Origin: a virus | DNA: 64,000 nucleotides | IMG/VR virus record: IMGVR_UViG_3300045988_134667 | Coordinates: 8,223-72,222 of that record | Direction: 5' to 3' (one strand) | In this document: positions 2,536 through 55,246 of the stretch, one piece after another | How the letters are laid out: each line of letters begins with the position of its first letter | How positions within the stretch are numbered: position 1 is the stretch's first letter | Notes under the pieces: generated by a model | Databases searched by the model: none | What the model was told of the DNA's origin: nothing | Seen by the model: only the letters and a program-made list of their open reading frames with translations | Translations under genes and position numbers: made by a program

Positions 2536-2963
2536 ATAGTTGTTTAATTCTCCTTTAATACAGTTGCTTAATTTTTCAAGTTACAATTTTTAGATGGATA
2601 TTTGTTCACCGAATGGCGTAGAATTTTCTGTACAATGGTGTACATTAGAAATTCTGGTTAGAAATGGTATCTCAGTTAGATTTACTAGCTTGATATTTTC
2701 TCATACGTTCAGCCGCCTGTTTCTTCTGTTCATCTGTAAGTTCACGTTTCTTCGCTCTAAAACTGATTAATGTTTTATCCTTTAATAAATATTTCTTACC
2801 TCTACCAGTATCTTGAATGAGAGAGTACATATCAGGGCTTTACTTACATAATCTATCCAATTTAGTAATATATGTAGAATCTGAAGCATAAATTGTTGCA
2901 AATTTCTCATCACGCATCATATTGATACAAACTTCCTGTTCTTCAATTGAAACTGTCATATTT

Positions 2964-3179
2964 TTATCTGCCATTGTTCATTTTCCTTTCTCTATAACTT
3001 CTAATACTGTTATTCATTTGCTTTTCACATGAGCGATCGAAAGCCCAATCTGCGAAAATCTTATCTGCAATATTTCGAGATCCTTCATAGTCAGTACAAA
3101 AATCTGAAGCACAAATATTTCCTCCGTATGTATTTGCATATTTATAGTTCTTTGATGTAATTGTTACTGTTTTGTTCAT
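2964..3179 (-). CDS. hypothetical protein
   Basis: ORF-track ORF; SD AGGAGA upstream of ATG at 3179. Confidence 0.4.
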   Translation of the reverse strand: MNKTVTITSKNYKYANTYGGNICASDFCTDYEGSRNIADKIFADWAFDRSCEKQMNNSIRSYRERKMNNGR

Positions 3180-3275
3180 TAATTAGTTCTCCTTTTCTGT
3201 TTAAAAATAATTTGTTCATTTTGCATCAGCTCCTTTGAGTGCTGCGTTAATGGTTACATATGTATATTCTCTGTT

Positions 3276-3503
3276 TTATAATTCATTTTCTAATAATTTA
3301 ATTATCTTTGTTTTAACATTATCAGAAAATAAACAATTTTTATCTGACTCCAATAAGTCTAATACGGTCTGATATGATAGGTCGGACGATTTTAGTGTAT
3401 TGATATAATGTTCTTTGTTCTTAAACCATTTTGTACCAATTTTATATAATTGATTTGAGTCACCTATCTCATTTGTTCCTGCGATTTTTACCATTCTTCC
3501 CAT
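3276..3503 (-). CDS. hypothetical protein
   Basis: ORF-track ORF; SD AGGAGG before ATG at 3503. Confidence 0.5.
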   Translation of the reverse strand: MGRMVKIAGTNEIGDSNQLYKIGTKWFKNKEHYINTLKSSDLSYQTVLDLLESDKNCLFSDNVKTKIIKLLENEL

Positions 3504-3505
3504 AT

Positions 3506-4453
3506 TTAATTTTCCTCCTTTGTTATGAAGTCATATTTATCAAATACTCGTATATCACGAATCTTTTCCAAACATGACTCATCATTATTCTTTTTGTAAG
3601 TTGCTTCATATTTGTGATTTTCTTGCAAGACATATGCATAGACTTGTTGGATATCTTCTTCAGAATATTTAAAATCTTTATTTTTACAGATTTGATTATA
3701 CATTTGAGCAAGTCGTCTTTTGGCATTAGCCTTCCTTATATTATTCTCCACATATTTATATGAATCTTTATATTTTCGTTGGCTAATAGCAAAAGCGTCA
3801 ATATACAACTGATCTTCAGGTCTGCCGTATACATTTGGTAAACGAGTTATTTCACCTGAATCTTTATTGATCATAAAATCATTCTGCCTATAAATATAAA
3901 TAAGACCAATGCTTTCTAATATTTTGTTGTAATCAATAATGGATCTTTCTGAAATACCTGAAAGTTGAGATATGTATTCTATAGTAAGATTACCAACAAC
4001 TCGACATTTGTGCTGATATGCGTCTATATATACATCAATCGTTGAACTGATAGTTCCAATAAGGAAGATAAAGTATTTCAACAATAGAAGAGTATTAACA
4101 TCCTTTAGCCGACATATCGTTAAAATCTCTTCGTAGGTAATAATTGTAAAATATTCACCTTCTTCTGTGATAAAAAGATCAGAACAATCTATTATGTCAA
4201 ATTTACCTTTTGATTTAACTCGCTTTATAATACCTTGATCAATTAACTCATCGTAGCCAGTTTTCAAACCAGTATAAAATCTACGTGGATAGTCTAATGA
4301 TTTTGTAAGCTGATATGCTAGTATTTCACAAGATGTACATATTTCTTTTACATCTTCATTAGGCAAAAGGGTTTTTATGGCACAATAGGCTGCTAAGCCA
4401 TATATAGAAAGCTTGTCTGATTTATATATTTTTTCACTTAGCCATAATTGCAT
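3506..4453 (-). CDS. putative DNA-binding or replication-initiation-like protein (winged-helix-like segment)
   Basis: 315-aa ORF with SD GGAAGTG. The segment IEYISQLSGISERSIIDYNKILESIGLI resembles a wHTH. It lies next to iteron-like and repeat boxes. The functional call is inference. Confidence 0.5.
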   Translation of the reverse strand: MQLWLSEKIYKSDKLSIYGLAAYCAIKTLLPNEDVKEICTSCEILAYQLTKSLDYPRRFYTGLKTGYDELIDQGIIKRVKSKGKFDIIDCSDLFITEEGEYFTIITYEEILTICRLKDVNTLLLLKYFIFLIGTISSTIDVYIDAYQHKCRVVGNLTIEYISQLSGISERSIIDYNKILESIGLIYIYRQNDFMINKDSGEITRLPNVYGRPEDQLYIDAFAISQRKYKDSYKYVENNIRKANAKRRLAQMYNQICKNKDFKYSEEDIQQVYAYVLQENHKYEATYKKNNDESCLEKIRDIRVFDKYDFITKEEN

Positions 4454-8207: not shown

Positions 8208-8276
8208 AAATGATAGCACTTGAAAAAAGTCAAATAATATGCTATCTTTGAATATATAAAAGGAGGCAAAAATTAT

Positions 8277-29043: not shown

Positions 29044-29325
29044 GTGGAATATAGTATGGAAAATTATAAAATTAGTTATAATGGTGATACTCAAATTAAA
29101 AATATTCACCATATAGGTGTTGATTATAATGGAAATTATTATAGCGTGATTTTCGGAGAATATGTAAATGGAGGATTCTTTAGTATTCCGAACTGGAATT
29201 GCGGTGGTGAGTTAGCTGGGCTTAGTGATGTGTTTTGGAATACAGAATCTATTCAGAAATCATTAAAAAGTAAAAGAGCAGCTAAAGCTATTGCAAAAGC
29301 GATAGAAGATTACACAAAGGAGTGA
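29044..29325 (+). CDS. hypothetical protein
   Basis: ORF track. Confidence 0.5.
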   Translation: MEYSMENYKISYNGDTQIKNIHHIGVDYNGNYYSVIFGEYVNGGFFSIPNWNCGGELAGLSDVFWNTESIQKSLKSKRAAKAIAKAIEDYTKE

Positions 29326-30326
29326 TGATTATGTGTTACAAAATAGAAGTACAAAACAAAAATGCTGAAAAGCTTAATAGGAAGTTGGATGAGTTAAACG
29401 CACCACAGTTTTTAAGAGATTACTTGAATGAGTTGGAAAGCAAGAACGGAGCGTTAAATTATCTAGTGGCAATTAAAGATTTTTTACAGTGGTTGATTGA
29501 AAGCAATATTATTAATAAGAAATCAATTTCTGAAATAGAAGTTTCTGATTTTAGTGACTTGCGACCACAAAATATTAGTTCATACCTTAGATACAAGGAA
29601 ACAAATGGAATGTCGCCAACCACAACGGAGACAAGAAAAAATATCATTAAAAGTTTCATACAGGATATTTATTCATACAGAGAATGTTTATTAAGAGAAA
29701 TTTATAGCAACATAGAAGATTTTTACAAAATGATTAAATATAAAGGAATCCCATCTGGTAATAACTTGACTAAAAAACTTCCAACAGAAAAGCAGCTTAA
29801 TGATATGGAAGAGAAAATAATGTGGAAGAAAGATGAATGTGTGAGGAATAGGAATATTGCTATCTTTCGAGTTTTAAGAGGAACTGGAATAAGAGAATCT
29901 GAACTTGCCGGTTTGGATTTATCAGATTTACATTTAGATGAAGAAATGCCATATATTACTATTCTTGGTAAAGGTGTGTACAGAGAAATGCAAAACAGAA
30001 CTGTATATCTTAGCGGATCTGCTCTGAAGGCATTAAGAGAATGGTTAGAATACAGAAGTACCTTAGATAATATTGTAGATACGGAAGCAGTTTTTGTAAA
30101 TAAAAACGGTACACGTACAACAGAAAGAAATATCAAACAGATATTTGAAAATTATGGCAATGGAATTACACCACATATGATGAGACATTATTATGCTAGT
30201 GTAATGAATCAGAATGGGAATCTTGCATTTGTACAACAGCAGCTTGGGCATAGTAGTGTGAATACAACGGTTAATAATTATGCAAACGGAGCTGTTGGAA
30301 TGAAAGAAAAATTAATGGAGATGTGA
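29325..30326 (+). CDS. int: tyrosine recombinase / phage integrase
   Basis: C-terminal catalytic signature RGTGIRESEL ... HMMRHYYAS ... LGHSSVNTTVNNY (R, H-x-x-R and the Tyr nucleophile). Confidence 0.8.
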   Translation: MIMCYKIEVQNKNAEKLNRKLDELNAPQFLRDYLNELESKNGALNYLVAIKDFLQWLIESNIINKKSISEIEVSDFSDLRPQNISSYLRYKETNGMSPTTTETRKNIIKSFIQDIYSYRECLLREIYSNIEDFYKMIKYKGIPSGNNLTKKLPTEKQLNDMEEKIMWKKDECVRNRNIAIFRVLRGTGIRESELAGLDLSDLHLDEEMPYITILGKGVYREMQNRTVYLSGSALKALREWLEYRSTLDNIVDTEAVFVNKNGTRTTERNIKQIFENYGNGITPHMMRHYYASVMNQNGNLAFVQQQLGHSSVNTTVNNYANGAVGMKEKLMEM

Positions 30327-31881: not shown

Positions 31882-31954
31882 AGGGCATTCGCCAAGTGGT
31901 AAGGCACAGGATTTTGATTCCTGCATTACATCAGTTCGAATCTGATATGCCCTG
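31882..31954 (+). tRNA. tRNA-Gln (anticodon UUG)
   Basis: Cloverleaf with acceptor AGGGCAT/ATGCCCT, D-arm GCCAAGTGGTAAGGC, anticodon stem CAGGA/TCCTG with loop TTTTGAT, and T-loop TTCGAAT. Architecture is nearly identical to E. coli tRNA-Gln. Confidence 0.8.
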
Positions 31955-32113
31955 CTTTGTGACATTCCACCCGGTATGTTACAGAACGCAAGTGATTTCC
32001 TTGTAAGAGCAAAATGTGTAGTTGCTATAGTTCTACCATAGTTTAATCCACTAACGGATTACAAGCTGATACTATAGAACTTCCTGATAAACTTGCGATA
32101 GTGTCAGCTACTT

Positions 32114-32187
32114 GGATCATTAGCACAATTGGTTAGTGCATTCGGCTCATAACCGAAAGGCTCAGAGTTCAAGTCTCTGATGATCCA
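32114..32187 (+). tRNA. tRNA-Met or initiator/Ile-lysidine type (anticodon CAU)
   Basis: Acceptor GGATCAT/ATGATCC, D-arm GCACAATTGGTTAGTGC, anticodon stem TTCGG/CCGAA with loop CTCATAA, T-arm CAGAGTTCAAGTCTCTG. Confidence 0.8.
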
Positions 32188-32212
32188 TTGCTAAATCAAA
32201 CAAAGAGAGGAG

Positions 32213-45412: not shown

Positions 45413-46933
45413 ATGGAATTAACACGTCTGCTAAAACCATAGGAAAAAAATAATTATTGTGAGTTAAGTGTAATTGAGCTTTGTAGTGGTATTGGTGCGC
45501 AGATGAAGGGAATTGATAATACTCATCTATTTAATGCAAATATGATTGCAACAGCAGATTTAGACAAAGAAGTAGTAGTTAGTTATGCTGCAATGCATTG
45601 TGGTTTGACTAATGAGATGATTGAAAACTATGAAGATTATCCAAGCAAAGAAGAAATGGTAAGACAGCTTACAGATAAGAGACTTGGATATGATTTTAAG
45701 AAAGATGTTCCGTATGATTGGGAAAAACTTTCACGAAAGAAGAACAAGACAAAAGGTATTGAGAAATATTGGTTAGCAGACCATATTTCACATAATCTTG
45801 GCGATATGATGCAGATTGAGTCACTGCCATATAGTGATTTACTTACATACTCGACTCCATGCACAGATTTGTCAATCGCCGGTAAACAGGAAGGATTAAA
45901 GTGGACATGTCATGATTGTGGTTGTGAATATGATCCATCAGAATTAGATGTAGATACTCGTTATACTTGCCCTAATTGTGGCAGTCACAACATTAAATCA
46001 ACTCGTTCAGGTTTATTGTATGAAGTTGAGAGACTTCTTGTAAAAGCAAAAGAGAATAATACATTACCAAAGTATTTGCTTATGGAGAATGTAGATGCTC
46101 TTGTATCAAAGAAGTATATTGACAGTTTTAAGGATTGGCTGATTCGACTTGATAATTTGGGATATAACTCATATTATCAGACAATCAATGCAAAGAATAC
46201 AGGTATTCCACAGAATCGAAATAGAATCTTCTGTATCTCTATTCGTAAGGATATTGATACCAAGTCTTTTGAATTTCCACAGCCTTTTGATACAGGAATC
46301 AGATTAAAGGATTTATTAGAAACAGATAGCAGTGTTTTGGAGAAATATTTCTTATCTGATGAAGTACAGAAAAGACTTCAGATAACAGATCCAAAATTTG
46401 AAAAGAATATTGTTGGTACTACAAAACCTGAATTCAGAACTATCGGTCAGAGAGATTTAGTTTATCAGCAGGATTCAGTAATGGGTACTTTAGTGGCAAC
46501 TGATTATAAACAACCAAAACAGATTCTTGCCAATTCAAATAATATAAATAGACTTTTTAATATTTATGGTGAAAATAAAGGAACTGGATTTGCAGGAAAT
46601 GTTTGGGATAAAGATTATATTTCTCCAACAATAACAACATGTCAAGGAGGAAATCGGCAACCAATGGTCGAAGAAGAGAGAGACAATTTGAGAGTTGTGA
46701 GAAAGCTTACGCCAAAAGAGTGCCATAGGCTTATGGGATTCGATGATGTTGATTATGAGAACTGTAAAGCAGTTGGAATGTCTGATACTCAGGGATATAA
46801 ACAAAGCGGTAACAGTATAGTAACAACTTGCATCTCTTTGTTGATTGAGCATTTATATAAGGCTCAGTATGACAATACATATATTTGTACAGATGAGAAG
46901 ATGGTAAATTTTCATCAGCCACAAGCGGATTAA
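45413..46933 (+). CDS. DNA (cytosine-5)-methyltransferase with a zinc-ribbon insertion. Motif I is encoded upstream of the track ORF start (45503), separated from a possible ATG (45413) by an in-frame TAG (45440-45442).
   Basis: Within track ORF 45503..46933: motif IV STPCTDLS, motif VI LLMENVDAL, motif VIII GIPQNRNRIF, motif X GNSIVTT, and an inserted CHDCGC...CPNCGSH. Motif I (IELCSGIGAQ) is read at 45473-45502 in the same frame, with no ATG, GTG or TTG between the TAG and 45503. Confidence 0.7.
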
Positions 46934-46939
46934 GTTCTG

Positions 46940-47780
46940 CTTGTGGTAATAAATGTACTGATATAAATGATTTTGAATTAACAAGAAGTAAATGGGTTAA
47001 TGACAAGTATAAAAAATTTTATGAAGAAAAAGGTTATCTTCCCAAATATTTCGATGTTTATAACGGAACAGAAGTGAAAGATTTTGCTCCTACAATATCA
47101 ACAAGAAGTAATGGAGCTATGGGAAGTGGGACTTTGCTTGTATATGATAATGTAAATTTTAATTTACCCTCTATTCAAAATGTAACTTATGAAAACGATG
47201 TTCAAAGAGTTGGAACTGTAAGTGAGAATAGTCTTATTGGCGGTAGAGTTATTGGAATAGAGGGTATTTGTTTCACATTAATGGCTTGCACTCATGGTTA
47301 TGGTATGGGAAACATTTATGACAATAGAAAGTTGGTGTTAGATGAAAAATTCAGAAAATACACCGAATGAATTGATTTTTGTTGGTGGTATAGATGGTAA
47401 CTTATGGTTGGATAACGGCAAACAACTATCTAGGAACTTTAAACAAGGATATAGAGCTTATAGCAGCGAAGGGATTGCCTGTTCTATTACGACAAATGGT
47501 GGATGTATAGGCGGTTGCACTGGACTCTATCTTATAGAAAGAGAGAATAATGAATAAGGATATACAATTTGAATTAACTTCAAGCAATTATGTTAATAAA
47601 AAATATACTGAATTTTACAAGAAACATGGATATATTCCAAAAATGTTCAATCCATATAATTGCAGTGAAATTACAGATATTGCACCAACTCTTACTACTC
47701 AATGCGGAAGCATGACAAGTAGTAGTTCTATCTGCATTATTGAAGAAATCCCACAAGAAAAGGATATACACAGAGAATAA
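46940..47780 (+). pseudogene. fragmented C5-methyltransferase-like C-terminal segments (three short ORFs 47074..47370, 47342..47557, 47550..47780)
   Basis: APTISTRSNG and IAPTLTTQCGS segments resemble the PTITT region (YISPTITTCQGG) of the upstream MTase. Only the C-terminal-like part is present, abutting the IS element. Confidence 0.35.
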
Positions 47781-49140
47781 TACAATAGAGAGTCAGTTAT
47801 TGACTCTCTATAACAGAGGAGGTGAAACAATATAAATAAAGCGGAAAGACATGTAATAAACAAAAACCATCCAATGTATTTAGCTTGTGATAACTTATGT
47901 TTTCTGGCAAAGAATATGTATAATTTATGCAATTATACAATTCGCCAAGAATTCTTTGAGACAAAGAAAGTTAAGAAGTATGGTGACTTAAATAAGGAAC
48001 TAAAACATACAGATGCTTTTATGGAACTTGGATCAAATGCAGCACAGATGGTTACAAAAGCATTGTGTAAGTCTTGGAAATCATTTCTTGTATCAGTTAA
48101 AGATTATACTATTCATCCAGAAAAGTATTTGGGAAAACCTAAGATACCAGCTTATAAAAAGAAAGACGGTAGATTTGTTTGTACTTTAACTAATATGCAG
48201 ACTAAAGTGAAAGATGGTTATTTGTATTTTGCTTTTAAGAGAATGAAAGAGTATAACAATTTAATTCTCACAAAAGTTACAGGTCATCATTTGTCTACGA
48301 GAATTGTTCCAAAAGGTGGTTGTTATATTATTGAAATTGTTTATGACGATGAAAAGCAATGTAAAAGTGAATTGGATAGAAACAGAATTGCTTCGATTGA
48401 TTTAGGTGTAAATAACTTTGTAACAATGGTAAATAACATAGGAGAATCTTCTATTGTTATAAATGGCAAAGGAATTAAATCTTATAATCAGTATTGGAAT
48501 AAAAAGGTTTCTAAATTAAGAAGTATTGCGAAAACCGTAAATGGATCTGATTGGACTAAACAGATGCAGAGCCTTACAAATAAAAGATATTTCAAGATGG
48601 AGTATTTCATGCATTGTGCGAGCAAATGGATTGTTAGTTATTGTGTGAAACATAATATTGGAACACTTGTTATTGGTAAGAATGATGGTTGGAAACAGAA
48701 AACAAATATGTGTAAAATTACAAATCAGACTTTTACTCAAATACCATACGAAAGTTTTCTTGAAAAGCTTGGATATAAGTGTGAAGAAACTGGTATAGAT
48801 TTGATTAAAACAGAAGAAGCTTATACTTCAGGAACTTCTTTCTTAGACAATGAGTTACCTGTTAAAGAAAATTATAACAAGTCAAGAAGAGTTTATAGAG
48901 GATTATTTAAAAGCAACAACGGAGAATATATAAATGCCGATGTTAATGGTGCATTTCAAATAATGCGTAAAGTATTCTCAAATGTAAAAGCAGATGAGAT
49001 AGTGGGTGCATATTCACACCCTGTAATTATAAATTTGTAATTGTAAATGGAAAATAAAAAGCCAATGAATGCCAAGATTGATTCAATGCATGAGAAAAAT
49101 CTGTTTAAATTACAGCCAATGCCAAGTTTTGTGTATCAGG
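47781..49140 (+). mobile_element. IS200/IS605-family element carrying tnpB only (IS1341-like); right boundary approximate
   Basis: Perfect subterminal hairpin ATAGAGAGTCA-gttat-TGACTCTCTAT at 47785-47811, immediately upstream of tnpB. Repeated GCCAATG(A)ATGCCAAG segments lie downstream of tnpB, in the expected right-end / guide-RNA region. Confidence 0.55.
47874..49040 (+). CDS. tnpB: TnpB (IS605 OrfB-type RuvC-like RNA-guided nuclease family)
   Basis: RuvC-I IASIDLGVNNF, RuvC-II IGKNDGW, RuvC-III ADVNGAFQIMRKV. The usual CxxC zinc finger appears to be replaced. Confidence 0.7.
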   Translation: MYLACDNLCFLAKNMYNLCNYTIRQEFFETKKVKKYGDLNKELKHTDAFMELGSNAAQMVTKALCKSWKSFLVSVKDYTIHPEKYLGKPKIPAYKKKDGRFVCTLTNMQTKVKDGYLYFAFKRMKEYNNLILTKVTGHHLSTRIVPKGGCYIIEIVYDDEKQCKSELDRNRIASIDLGVNNFVTMVNNIGESSIVINGKGIKSYNQYWNKKVSKLRSIAKTVNGSDWTKQMQSLTNKRYFKMEYFMHCASKWIVSYCVKHNIGTLVIGKNDGWKQKTNMCKITNQTFTQIPYESFLEKLGYKCEETGIDLIKTEEAYTSGTSFLDNELPVKENYNKSRRVYRGLFKSNNGEYINADVNGAFQIMRKVFSNVKADEIVGAYSHPVIINL

Positions 49141-49151
49141 CGTAAATGAAA

Positions 49152-49196
49152 TACTATATATAGTGTTTATAGAAAATATAGGCACTATATATAGTG
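49152..49196 (+). promoter_or_regulatory. pair of perfect palindromes (C)ACTATATATAGT(G), 31 bp apart
   Basis: Core sites at 49153-49164 and 49184-49195, upstream of gene 49241. Confidence 0.55.
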
Positions 49197-49240
49197 GTAT
49201 TTTTACCAAGAAACATAGATTTCCTTCGGGATGAAAAGAG

Positions 49241-49597: not shown

Positions 49598-50281
49598 ATG
49601 AGCAAGATATACGATTATGAAGAATATCAAAATCAACGAGTAAAAGTTACATATACTGATAAAAGAAAATACAGAGAAGAAAACATTGTTGGTCTATATG
49701 GACAAGTTATTAAGACTACAAGTGGATCAATAGCGGTTCAGATTGATGGAATGTATAATGCAGCAAGCTCCAATGGATTATATTGGTTTAAAAGAAGTGA
49801 ATTGGATATTATTAGAGATGGAAGTGAGGATAATAAAATGACAGGATTTAATAAAGTGGCGATTGTAAATTTGGTAGATGATTACAATAAGAAGGATTAT
49901 GGATTTGCTTTATATGATGAAGATATGAATGAAATTGTTAAGTACGATACAAACCATCCGTTATATGTGATTGTAAATGCAAGAGGAAAAGATAATAGAG
50001 TCCTTGGAATTTTAAAAGAAGTAAAGTCAGTAGAAGCATATGGCAAGTGCGTAACGGCACAGGTCGTTGGAGTTGTTAATATGAATGCATACAATGCAAG
50101 AATTGATGAGGAAAATCGTCAGAAAGAAATTGCAAAGCAGAAAGCTTCTATTGAGAAGGAGTTAAAGTCTGAGATTGAAAAGATGAATAATATTGCTTTA
50201 TATGAAAAGATGGCAAAGGAGCATCCTGAGAATCCAAGACTCGCTGAACTTGTTAATGCACTGAAAGAGTTAGGAGAATAA
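49598..50281 (+). CDS. hypothetical protein
   Basis: ORF track; SD AGGAGGTGA. Confidence 0.6.
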   Translation: MSKIYDYEEYQNQRVKVTYTDKRKYREENIVGLYGQVIKTTSGSIAVQIDGMYNAASSNGLYWFKRSELDIIRDGSEDNKMTGFNKVAIVNLVDDYNKKDYGFALYDEDMNEIVKYDTNHPLYVIVNARGKDNRVLGILKEVKSVEAYGKCVTAQVVGVVNMNAYNARIDEENRQKEIAKQKASIEKELKSEIEKMNNIALYEKMAKEHPENPRLAELVNALKELGE

Positions 50282-54679: not shown

Positions 54680-55246
54680 ATGAATAAAAAATATAATATT
54701 ATTTATGCTGATCCACCTTGGGATTATGGAAATACTAAAAATCTCAACGGAGAATTTTGGGGAATGGCAGATAAACATTACGAGGTAATGAAATTTAAAG
54801 ATTTATGTAATTTACCAATCGGTAATATTGCAGCAGATGATTGTTTTTTATTTTTATGGGTTACATCGCCATTCCTTGAAAAAGGATTTGAACTTATAAA
54901 ATCATGGGGATTTAAATATGCAACTGTTGGTTTTGTATGGGTAAAGATGAAAAATGATATGTCAGAAGTTAGAAAAGATGGATTGGGCAAATATACTATC
55001 TCAAATGCGGAATATTGTCTAATAGCACGAAAAGGTAAATATTGGCGTGAAGCGAGAAATGTACAACAGATTATAGAATATCCCAAAACAGAACATTCTG
55101 AAAAGCCAAAAGAAATAAGAGACAGAATAGTATCTTTATGTGGTAATTTGCCAAGAGTAGAATTATTTGCAAGAGATTTATGTGAAGGTTGGGATTCTAT
55201 TGGCAATGAAATTGACGGAAGAGATATTAGAGATGTAATTAAGTAA
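54680..55246 (+). CDS. MT-A70-family N6-adenine DNA methyltransferase (orphan)
   Basis: Catalytic DPPW motif (IIYADPPWDYGN); about 190 aa, typical of phage MT-A70 MTases. Confidence 0.75.
   Translation: MNKKYNIIYADPPWDYGNTKNLNGEFWGMADKHYEVMKFKDLCNLPIGNIAADDCFLFLWVTSPFLEKGFELIKSWGFKYATVGFVWVKMKNDMSEVRKDGLGKYTISNAEYCLIARKGKYWREARNVQQIIEYPKTEHSEKPKEIRDRIVSLCGNLPRVELFARDLCEGWDSIGNEIDGRDIRDVIK

Follow-up and report, generated by a model that had tools for sequence, protein, structure and literature searches.

Several target-recognition domain (TRD) modules of about 50 amino acids serve one catalytic core in the multispecific C5-cytosine DNA methyltransferases of the Bacillus phages SPR, phi3T and rho11s, and split C5-methyltransferases are represented by M.AquI and M.EcoHK31I, the latter with a small accessory polypeptide encoded in another frame. 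In phage tail chaperones (gpG/gpGT) and in dnaX, in turn, programmed -1 ribosomal frameshifting lets a single start give rise to two isoforms that differ at the C-terminus. Described here is a locus that recalls both arrangements, located in a 64,000-nucleotide stretch of virus DNA (IMG/VR record IMGVR_UViG_3300045988_134667, positions 8,223 to 72,222), hereafter the window, within which all positions are numbered; related loci are labelled L### and database proteins P####. Two separate things probably lie side by side in it, namely a C5-methyltransferase gene with TRD modules and a compact unit encoding the nuclease TnpB and its omega-RNA. The methyltransferase part matters more: an enzyme that is switched by inversion, apparently extended by frameshifting and accompanied by further TRDs is the more interesting part of the locus, and the tnpB part refines an ordinary annotation.

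For the nuclease, the closest described systems are the TnpB/omega-RNA pairs of the IS607 elements ISFba1 and CboIStron (PMC11061315, PMC10690162). As in those elements, a RuvC nuclease of approximately 390 amino acids is encoded, the relatives of which lie downstream of a serine-recombinase TnpA; inverted repeats, terminal hairpins and a target-site duplication are lacking; the right end resembles a purine-rich flank motif with one change, as with TGGG and TCGG in CboIStron (PMC10690162); and the open reading frame (ORF) runs into a structured, conserved 3' region. Unlike them, the window unit has neither a TnpA nor a RAGATH-18 match, extends only 31 nucleotides past the stop codon (approximately 75-85 in bacterial relatives), has AAAG as its candidate flank motif in place of the AGGAG, GAGGG or TGGG of IS607 systems, ends in ...ATG rather than GG, and has lost its zinc-finger cysteines and relocated its catalytic glutamate. 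TnpB clades with an alternative glutamate ("RIIr", "pro-Fanzor") or an NADxN motif have been linked to IS607 and to viruses, and G- or AG-rich transposon-adjacent motifs (TAMs) have been reported (PMC10691335, PMC10711439, PMC11061315, PMC10690162); some RIIr clades are virus-enriched (PMC10691335, PMC10711439). The window protein resembles these IS607-associated clades in having its glutamate six residues before the zinc-finger position and NADVN as its RuvC-III motif; with pro-Fanzor it shares the alternative glutamate alone, as its RuvC-I motif is IDLG instead of DPG and the C4 zinc finger is absent. Elements of the IS200/IS605 type (ISDra2, IS608) likewise carry a homologue of tnpB and derive an omega-RNA from their right end, although their Y1 HUH TnpA, their hairpins near both ends and their AT-rich targets are each absent or contradicted here. 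The features of the locus are collected in Table 1.

Table 1. Features of the methyltransferase-tnpB locus in order of position within the window.
Feature	Position	Strand	Description
Invertible segment	45290-45460		Imperfect inverted repeats 45290-45307/45443-45460
C5-cytosine DNA methyltransferase ORF	45443-46933	+	PF00145 1.9e-46; TIGR00675 1.9e-40
Candidate -1 frameshift cassette	46906-46947	+	A_AAT_TTT 46906-46912; 5-nt spacer; 12-bp stem-loop
ORF1, -1-frame extension	46906-47370	+	No start codon; Ser/Gly-rich linker and two TRD-like modules
ORF2, 71-aa free-standing TRD-like protein	47342-47557	+	ATG in last 29 nt of ORF1
ORF3, 76-aa free-standing TRD-like protein	47550-47780	+	ATG overlaps ORF2 stop (ATGAATAA)
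Perfect hairpin	47785-47811		11-bp stem, 5-nt loop; left flank of tnpB unit
TnpA-less TnpB unit, assigned to IS607 lineage	47820-49071	+	Left end AGGTGAAAC...; right end ...GCCAATGAATG
tnpB coding frame	47832-49040	+	402 codons from ATA 47832, or 388 aa from ATG 47874
Candidate omega-RNA scaffold, 3' part	~48976-49071	+	Covariation; ORF 3' end plus 31 nt
Candidate scaffold stems	48976-48980/48995-48999, 49004-49008/49017-49021, 49048-49050/49062-49064	+	Followed by AATGAATG
NAD synthase remnant	49072-49145	+	Last 25 codons (KIDSMHEKNLFKLQPMPSFVYQA*); 49072-49091 is the predicted guide region

On comparison of related loci, the segment ahead of the methyltransferase is an invertible promoter and start-codon switch. 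Motif I of the enzyme (ELCSGIGAQ) lies upstream of the first ATG (45503), and in the window's orientation the frame is closed by a TAG at 45440-45442; the invertible core holds a promoter (TTGACA-17-TATTTT, on the minus strand in the window, 45322-45294), a start codon and the leader MTENKEKN, which supplies the first eight codons. In the window the switch is turned OFF, with the leader fused to a 53-amino-acid minus-strand ORF running from 45322 to 45161. The segment recurs in related loci such as L112-L157; of the relatives, 47 are ON, with the core inverted relative to the window, and 7 are OFF; the methyltransferase ORF of the ON loci has a start codon and spans 500-502 amino acids, and even near-identical genomes differ, with L113 (99% identity) OFF and L112, L115, and L116 (100%) ON. 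The same switch drives a different, 328-amino-acid C5-methyltransferase in L027. The only tyrosine recombinase of the window (29322-30326, plus strand, PF00589 1e-28) is a candidate for the invertase of the switch or for a prophage integrase. The methyltransferase (45503-46933) also has a CxxC...CxxC zinc-ribbon insertion (residues ~112-167, between motifs IV and VI) with a weak HypA-like match.

At its other end, the methyltransferase appears to have ORF1 appended to it by programmed -1 ribosomal frameshifting. The slippery heptamer stands in the zero-frame X_XXY_YYZ register and is invariant in 52 loci (23 distinct sequences), and the codon before AAT TTT varies (GTA, GCA, ATA) but always ends in A. 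The stem-loop that follows (arms 46918-46929/46936-46947), with the methyltransferase stop codon TAA (46931-46933) in its loop, has a folding energy of -20.8 kcal/mol (z = -6.9; z = -4.4 in L113, -3.9 in L124 and a weak -0.6 in L003), and in L124 its stem has undergone a compensatory change from A:T to G:C. ORF1 occupies the methyltransferase frame minus 1, in which a TGA stands three codons before the heptamer and the frame then remains open to 47370; the -1 ORF is open for 63-154 codons in 21 of the 23 distinct sequences, where 66 open codons would be expected by chance in about 0.5% of cases. Its predicted product has a Ser/Gly-rich linker and then one or two TRD modules, and swaps and indels among relatives always keep the frame. 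Within the stretch that lacks a start codon, the ratio of nonsynonymous to synonymous polymorphism (pN/pS; here and below a pairwise sum over related sequences, not a tally of independent events) is 0.10 in the -1 frame versus 1.15 and 2.41 in the other frames. The most telling evidence for frameshifting comes from L146, in which the spacer has one extra base and the same extension is fused in frame (...EKMINF-INPTSGLDSVCGNHKPILVGGIGEINFGKQFRQGNRVYD...). The trans-frame product would comprise approximately 620 amino acids in the ON orientation, with the junction peptide ...EKMVNFSSATSGLSSACGNK.

The arrangement of heptamer, short spacer and downstream stem-loop is that of gpG/gpGT and dnaX; unlike in those genes, it is found in a DNA methyltransferase gene, and its extension is exchanged modularly among relatives. 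No report of a frameshift-dependent C5-methyltransferase was found in the literature. Public gene calls P0001-P0003 run from the 3' end of the methyltransferase through ORF1 with TGA read as Trp, giving artefactual proteins of 154-170 amino acids and thereby hiding the frameshift architecture. Stop-codon recoding (codes 4 and 15) was rejected, given that eight long plus-strand ORFs end in TGA and that no suppressor tRNA occurs in the window, and also because the ORFs would stay unjoined.

The methyltransferase is followed by short ORFs in three frames (47074-47370, in a frame open from 46897; 47342-47557; 47550-47780) with the motifs APTISTRSNG, ACSITTNGG, and APTLTTQCG, respectively. The initial annotation had recognized these ORFs and their PT(I/L)(S/T)T motifs, both of which are present, and had suggested that they look like pieces of a second C5-methyltransferase, whose disruption or decay might be associated with the insertion of tnpB. 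Their kinship with methyltransferases is borne out by direct search and missed by profile libraries: Pfam and NCBIfam profiles gave no matches to ORF1-3 and PHROGs only weak matches of ORF2 to two unannotated families, and a search of 5.8 billion proteins aligned the ORFs with variable regions of the PF00145 enzymes P0005 (1.4e-21), P0009, P0010, P0012, and P0014. ORF2 is 77% identical to residues 327-373 of P0005 over 47 amino acids, and ORF3 is 51% identical over 53 amino acids to residues 291-343 of P0014, i.e., the TRD just ahead of motif IX. None of the catalytic C5-methyltransferase motifs I, IV, VI, VIII, IX, and X occurs in ORF1-3, which contain TRD modules alone. The proposed decay does not hold, as the same ORFs are found in the same three frames in relatives without tnpB (e.g., L150, L136, L138, L141, and L122), and own-frame pN/pS is 0.11 for ORF1, 0.18 for ORF2 and 0.07 for ORF3 (the last versus L150), with off-frame values above 1 save for one ORF1b off-frame at 0.22. 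The short ORFs predate tnpB and are not decay products.

The overlap of the ORF2 and ORF3 start codons with the ends of the preceding ORFs suggests translational coupling, and the short ORFs would be functional TRD modules serving the upstream C5-methyltransferase, with the long isoform and the small TRD proteins altering or broadening target recognition. The provision of several TRD modules for one core resembles both the multispecific enzymes of SPR, phi3T and rho11s and the split enzymes M.AquI and M.EcoHK31I; unlike in those enzymes, the extra TRDs follow motif X, in a frameshift extension and in separate ORFs, rather than lying between motifs VIII and IX. In L003 (2610-2940), an ORF2-like TRD is followed by a single TGA and then, in the same frame, by a motif IX-X remnant (..RLQTLPDNY..), and the matching ending GNGWTVSVISHILSFIK* lies in a different frame; the C-terminus of an L027-type methyltransferase has thus left a relic directly upstream of tnpB.

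The tnpB frame matches NF040570 "guided_TnpB" (152.5 bits, cutoff 100), PF01385 (56.3 bits, threshold 30.5; 4.6e-15) and PF07282 (37.9 bits, threshold 26.3; 2e-9). As the initial annotation had stated, the gene is intact in its RuvC motifs, though the RuvC-II glutamate of the D-E-D triad occupies an alternative position; the triad consists of D in IDLG (48399-48401), E in TEEAYTS (48813-48818) and D in NADVNG (48939-48941). Across 13 homologues (44-91% identity), D190, E329 and D370 (402-residue numbering) are invariant and E328 is nearly so. The glutamate lies six residues ahead of the expected first zinc-finger cysteine, the canonical RuvC-II position reads IGKNDGW, and all four zinc-finger cysteines are gone, with SFLD...GLFK in their place; these features match the published "alternative Glu"/"RIIr" rearrangement and the derived "NADxN" RuvC-III clade (PMC10711439, PMC10691335, PMC13565253). 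Sequence and profile searches of the PDB with TnpB returned distant Cas12f-type chains only. The frame begins 14 codons before the annotated ATG, and substitutions in that stretch are mostly synonymous; the start position itself, which sits 7-8 nucleotides after the ribosome-binding site (RBS), reads ATG in L002, L011, and L021-L031, ATA in the window, L001, L004, L015, L016, and L018, and ATC in L010, so that either non-canonical weak initiation or translation from the internal Met15 applies to the ATA and ATC copies. With a dN/dS of 0.11-0.22 versus six other phage copies, purifying selection and the intact catalytic triad argue for an active nuclease.

The family assignment follows from the relatives of the protein. 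A genome-wide scan returned more than 546 TnpB relatives in Clostridia, Bacilli, cyanobacteria and Asgard archaea, and in viruses as well; an ORF of approximately 200 amino acids lies directly upstream on the same strand in about 20 of 80 bacterial and archaeal loci examined, and nine of the ten such ORFs that were tested are serine recombinases (Resolvase PF00239), some with a helix-turn-helix domain. Since the relatives lie directly downstream of a serine-recombinase TnpA, the window tnpB is assigned to the IS607 lineage and not to IS200/IS605. The left flanks point the same way in being purine-rich (AAAAG, GTAAG, AATAG, AGAGG), unlike IS200/IS605 targets of the TTAC/TTGAT type. Neither a Y1 transposase nor a resolvase is found among 59 ORFs of the window, and the serine-recombinase TnpA is absent beside all 30 phage copies as well as the window copy, which shows the TnpB unit to be non-autonomous. 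An IStron or group I intron was ruled out, no match being found.

The ends of the unit were placed by comparing copies in unrelated contexts, which share the sequence from 47819/47838 to 49071 and nothing more (BLAST versus 30 phage loci). The left end coincides with the RBS of the gene itself (AGGTGAAA), and there are no terminal hairpins, inverted repeats or target-site duplication at 47820-49071. In eight contigs that encode the identical TnpB protein, the left flank is the same throughout (ORF3, then the hairpin, then AACAGAGG|AGGTGAAAC), and on the right at least five flanks can be told apart, with divergence setting in after ...GCCAATGAATG CGGAATTTCTT; given these identical copies with different flanks, the unit ends at ...AATGAATG, and the remainder is a phage leader motif. 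The motif ATGAAT-N5-WTTTY was rejected as part of the window's right end, where it is absent. In L012, an inverted tnpB 3' end (2326-2610) is joined to sequence resembling 47476-48700 of the window (2603-3831), by inverted duplication or as an assembly chimera.

The 3' portion of the unit is a probable omega-RNA, as judged by its conservation and covariation. The last ~70 nucleotides of the tnpB ORF are nearly invariant among copies that are ~80% identical elsewhere, and RNAalifold predicts two stems there with compensatory changes in five of ten predicted pairs. Between the tnpB stop codon and AATGAATG there is a further, third stem, the pairs of which covary from one subfamily to another (GGTAT/ATACC, GGGG/CCCC, GGC/GCC, CGTA/TACG, CAACT/AGTTG), and the flanks diverge after the conserved end, as for a variable guide. 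The suggestion in the initial annotation that an omega-RNA may arise from a repeat-containing 3' flank is consistent with these data as to the RNA and corrected as to its place, the candidate scaffold lying at ~48976-49071 and not at 49041-49140, which is mostly NAD synthase remnant. The "repeat" consists of GCCAATG(AATG)CCAAG near 49061-49076, which is the element end plus the junction, and GCCAATGCCAAG near 49115-49127, which is coding sequence of the NAD synthase remnant; the pair was not listed by a repeat search of the window.

Comparison of the flanks suggests a TAM of approximately (G/A)AAAG for a unit spanning 47820-49071, the right end of which, GAATG, would mimic GAAAG with one change. 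On the left, independent tnpB subfamilies are preceded by (G)AAAAG|AGGTGAAA (L002, L010, L024, and L028), by GTAAG| (L031) or by AATAG| (L004 and L005). On the right, CGGAATTTCTT is a conserved noncoding phage sequence, found in tnpB-less relatives between the methyltransferase module and variable genes, and CGGAATTTC is preceded by AAAG in 59 of 66 distinct tnpB-less contexts and by GAATG (AATG) in six of six tnpB contexts. Both the TAM and the right end are supported by two deletion variants, L265 and the window, each of which extends from precisely the right end to a point immediately 3' of an AAAAG: the L265 junction is AATGAATG|AGGTAACAAAATG versus GAAAAG|AGGTAACAAAATG in L258, and the window junction is AATGAATG|CCAAGATTG... 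versus GTAAAAG|CTAAGATTGATTCAATGCAT in 17 relatives. The window junction falls at the point that, in sibling phages, lies exactly 3' of a TAM-like AAAAG, and its guide region consists of NAD synthase sequence; the predicted guide therefore agrees with the siblings' NAD synthase gene at 19 of 20 bases, and the TAM-like motif adjoins the match. More than 20 relatives keep that gene intact, beside NAPRTase and NMNAT-like genes (PF02540 4.1e-50 in L035). A deletion from the exact right end to the 3' side of the NAD synthase AAAAG would thus have put this sequence in guide position, with TnpA acting in trans or microhomology-mediated repair as conceivable origins of the junction, and the ribonucleoprotein would cut siblings that keep the NAD synthase gene and thereby promote inheritance of the tnpB allele through recombination.

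An IS200/IS605 element with a left-end hairpin, mobilized by a Y1 TnpA and inserted into or beside a decaying second C5-methyltransferase, along the lines of the initial annotation, would account for the PF01385 "OrfB_IS605" match, for a strong hairpin 8 nucleotides upstream of the unit, for the methyltransferase-related ORFs and for the motif IX-X remnant between the ORF2-like TRD and tnpB of L003. The perfect hairpin that it described is real and stable (-15.5 kcal/mol, z = -4.2; none of 200 shuffles equally stable); however, it ends 8 nucleotides outside the shared unit, an exact match to it is found in no more than two IMG/VR contigs, it is kept only in the closest copies (L012, L027, and L258-L265) and is missing from copies that are 68-91% identical, and in L027 it comes after the stop codon of the different, 328-amino-acid methyltransferase. 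No right-end counterpart was found by repeat search, a result that the initial annotation had itself named as counting against its proposal. Together with the serine-recombinase partners of the relatives (nine of ten tested), the lack of a Y1 TnpA in the window, the purine-rich flanks and the age and purifying selection of the short ORFs, these data already contradict the IS605 explanation, the chance of which is now slight in the extreme. An immobile, free-standing phage tnpB, comparable to a moron or homing endonuclease and shuffled by general recombination at conserved gene-boundary sequences, has a better claim and yet is unlikely. Its boundaries would be the RBS GGAGGTGAAA on the left and the leader GAA(A/T)G-N5-ATTTC on the right, AAAG would not be a TAM, and the window guide would be non-functional; consistent with this, the left end is a generic RBS of these phages, the leader occurs at no fewer than 10 intergenic sites without tnpB, left junctions are imprecise between filled and empty loci (L001 versus L257, L003 versus L124), the window lacks a TnpA and its junction is unique. 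Such shuffling sits poorly with two independent deletions running from the same right-end base to just after AAAAG, with a right end that is one base off the flanking motif (6/6 versus 59/66), as in IS607 (PMC10690162), and with the strong purifying selection on an intact triad.

For ORF1, expression without frameshifting (by readthrough, by TGA recoding from TTG 46885 or from a non-canonical start), or its dismissal along with ORF2 and ORF3 as three untranslated relics, is improbable to a still greater degree than an immobile tnpB. Public callers do read TGA as Trp, in-frame ATA codons are available, and L123 has a TAG in the start-less stretch; on the other side stand the ~53 of 64 kb of standard-code ORFs with their long TGA-terminated members and no suppressor tRNA, the opening of the -1 frame at the heptamer with its frame-preserving exchanges, the constant A before AAT TTT, the compensatory change in the stem-loop, the in-frame fusion of L146 and a pN/pS of 0.10 upstream of any start codon. 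Programmed frameshifting and an IS607-lineage unit remain the preferred readings, and several observations weigh against one or the other. The TnpA is absent from the window; the right end finishes in ...ATG, whereas GG is reported for IS607 ends; no RAGATH-18 or other Rfam family matched the window (E up to 1) or 16 related bacterial loci; the window tnpB has an ATA start codon; and the TAM was drawn from comparisons, the left flank in the window itself closing with CAGAGG in place of AAAG. The left flank (hairpin and AACAGAGG) moves along with this sublineage, as in L027, and with no TnpA and a co-travelling flank, spread may have occurred by general recombination instead of transposition. 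The right junction of the window has no match in IMG/VR or the JGI metagenomes, and as a private variant it might have led nowhere, its guide being an orphan. As regards the methyltransferase, the pN/pS values sum over related pairs, we know of no structural precedent for a TRD after motif X, and the case is made from sequence.

Taken as a whole, the combined picture can be advanced only tentatively and is rather unlikely to hold in every part: a phage C5-methyltransferase under inversion and frameshift control, its specificity tuned by isoform ratio, beside an IS607-lineage TnpB that, through recombination of its right end at a TAM-like site, now targets the NAD synthase gene of siblings. In that arrangement, the inversion switch would carry the promoter, the start codon and the first eight codons, and the frameshift would append exchangeable TRD modules after motif X. 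If this is true, the locus encodes a phase-variable methylation system with specificity set by isoform ratio and with further TRD mini-proteins downstream, and in competition between phages TnpB acts as an RNA-guided weapon or as a gene drive. For a phage, isoforms that depend on recoding, together with TRD proteins encoded on their own, would be a new means of diversifying or regulating the specificity of its DNA methylation against host restriction systems. The tnpB part shows that compact TnpB units of the IS607 lineage, lacking a TnpA, are in circulation in large gut phages; their ends can be defined and their TAM inferred, and guides that match sibling-phage alleles make RNA-guided homing or exclusion between phages directly testable. 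Automated annotation yields a series of small "hypothetical" ORFs here, or else a mistranslation in which TGA stands for Trp.

The window is AT-rich (32% GC), is fitted by the standard genetic code and belongs to a family of large (~90-200 kb) gut phages or prophages with dozens of IMG/VR relatives, in which the locus forms a hypervariable accessory region extending from the C5-methyltransferase module to a conserved 227-amino-acid gene (49598-50281). Public assemblies contain the exact TnpB protein in 62 indexed blocks, with one carrying contig being a 1.28-Mb scaffold; among GenBank phages, a single record (MT835469) has the same tnpB, at 80% identity and in a different context.

In L033, L041, L089, and L093, a gene ending in ...CCSGKQKTCKGFVWNYK, where it looks like a NUMOD-type homing endonuclease at its C-terminus, is joined to the NAD synthase remnant within 1-2 nucleotides of the window's junction and ~110 nucleotides before the homologue of 49074, and these fusions suggest a recombination hot spot. 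The NAD salvage/synthesis cluster of relatives (L035:3186-5890) often also has a nicotinamidase; only the last 25 NAD synthase codons are kept in the window. The leader (G/T)AAAG-CGGAATTTCTT and the general motif GAA(A/T)G-N5-ATTTC lie 5-25 nucleotides upstream of RBSs at many intergenic sites (L118:5771, L150:6387, and L140:6361; also L025:2377, L037:5954, and L039:8703), and in related loci the tnpB units are always directly 5' of a leader motif. A palindrome at 49142-49206 (30-nucleotide arms, ACTATATATAGTG twice) is terminator-like with a T-run and 91-97% conserved in relatives, and similar palindromes precede the leader motif in L055, L063, and L150.

Elsewhere in the window are genes for a Tad4-like Thoeris inhibitor, MazE, MazF, a Thg1-like protein and an I-HmuI NUMOD-like endonuclease domain, together with an MT-A70 N6-methyltransferase (54680-55246) and two tRNAs (31882-31955 and 32113-32188).

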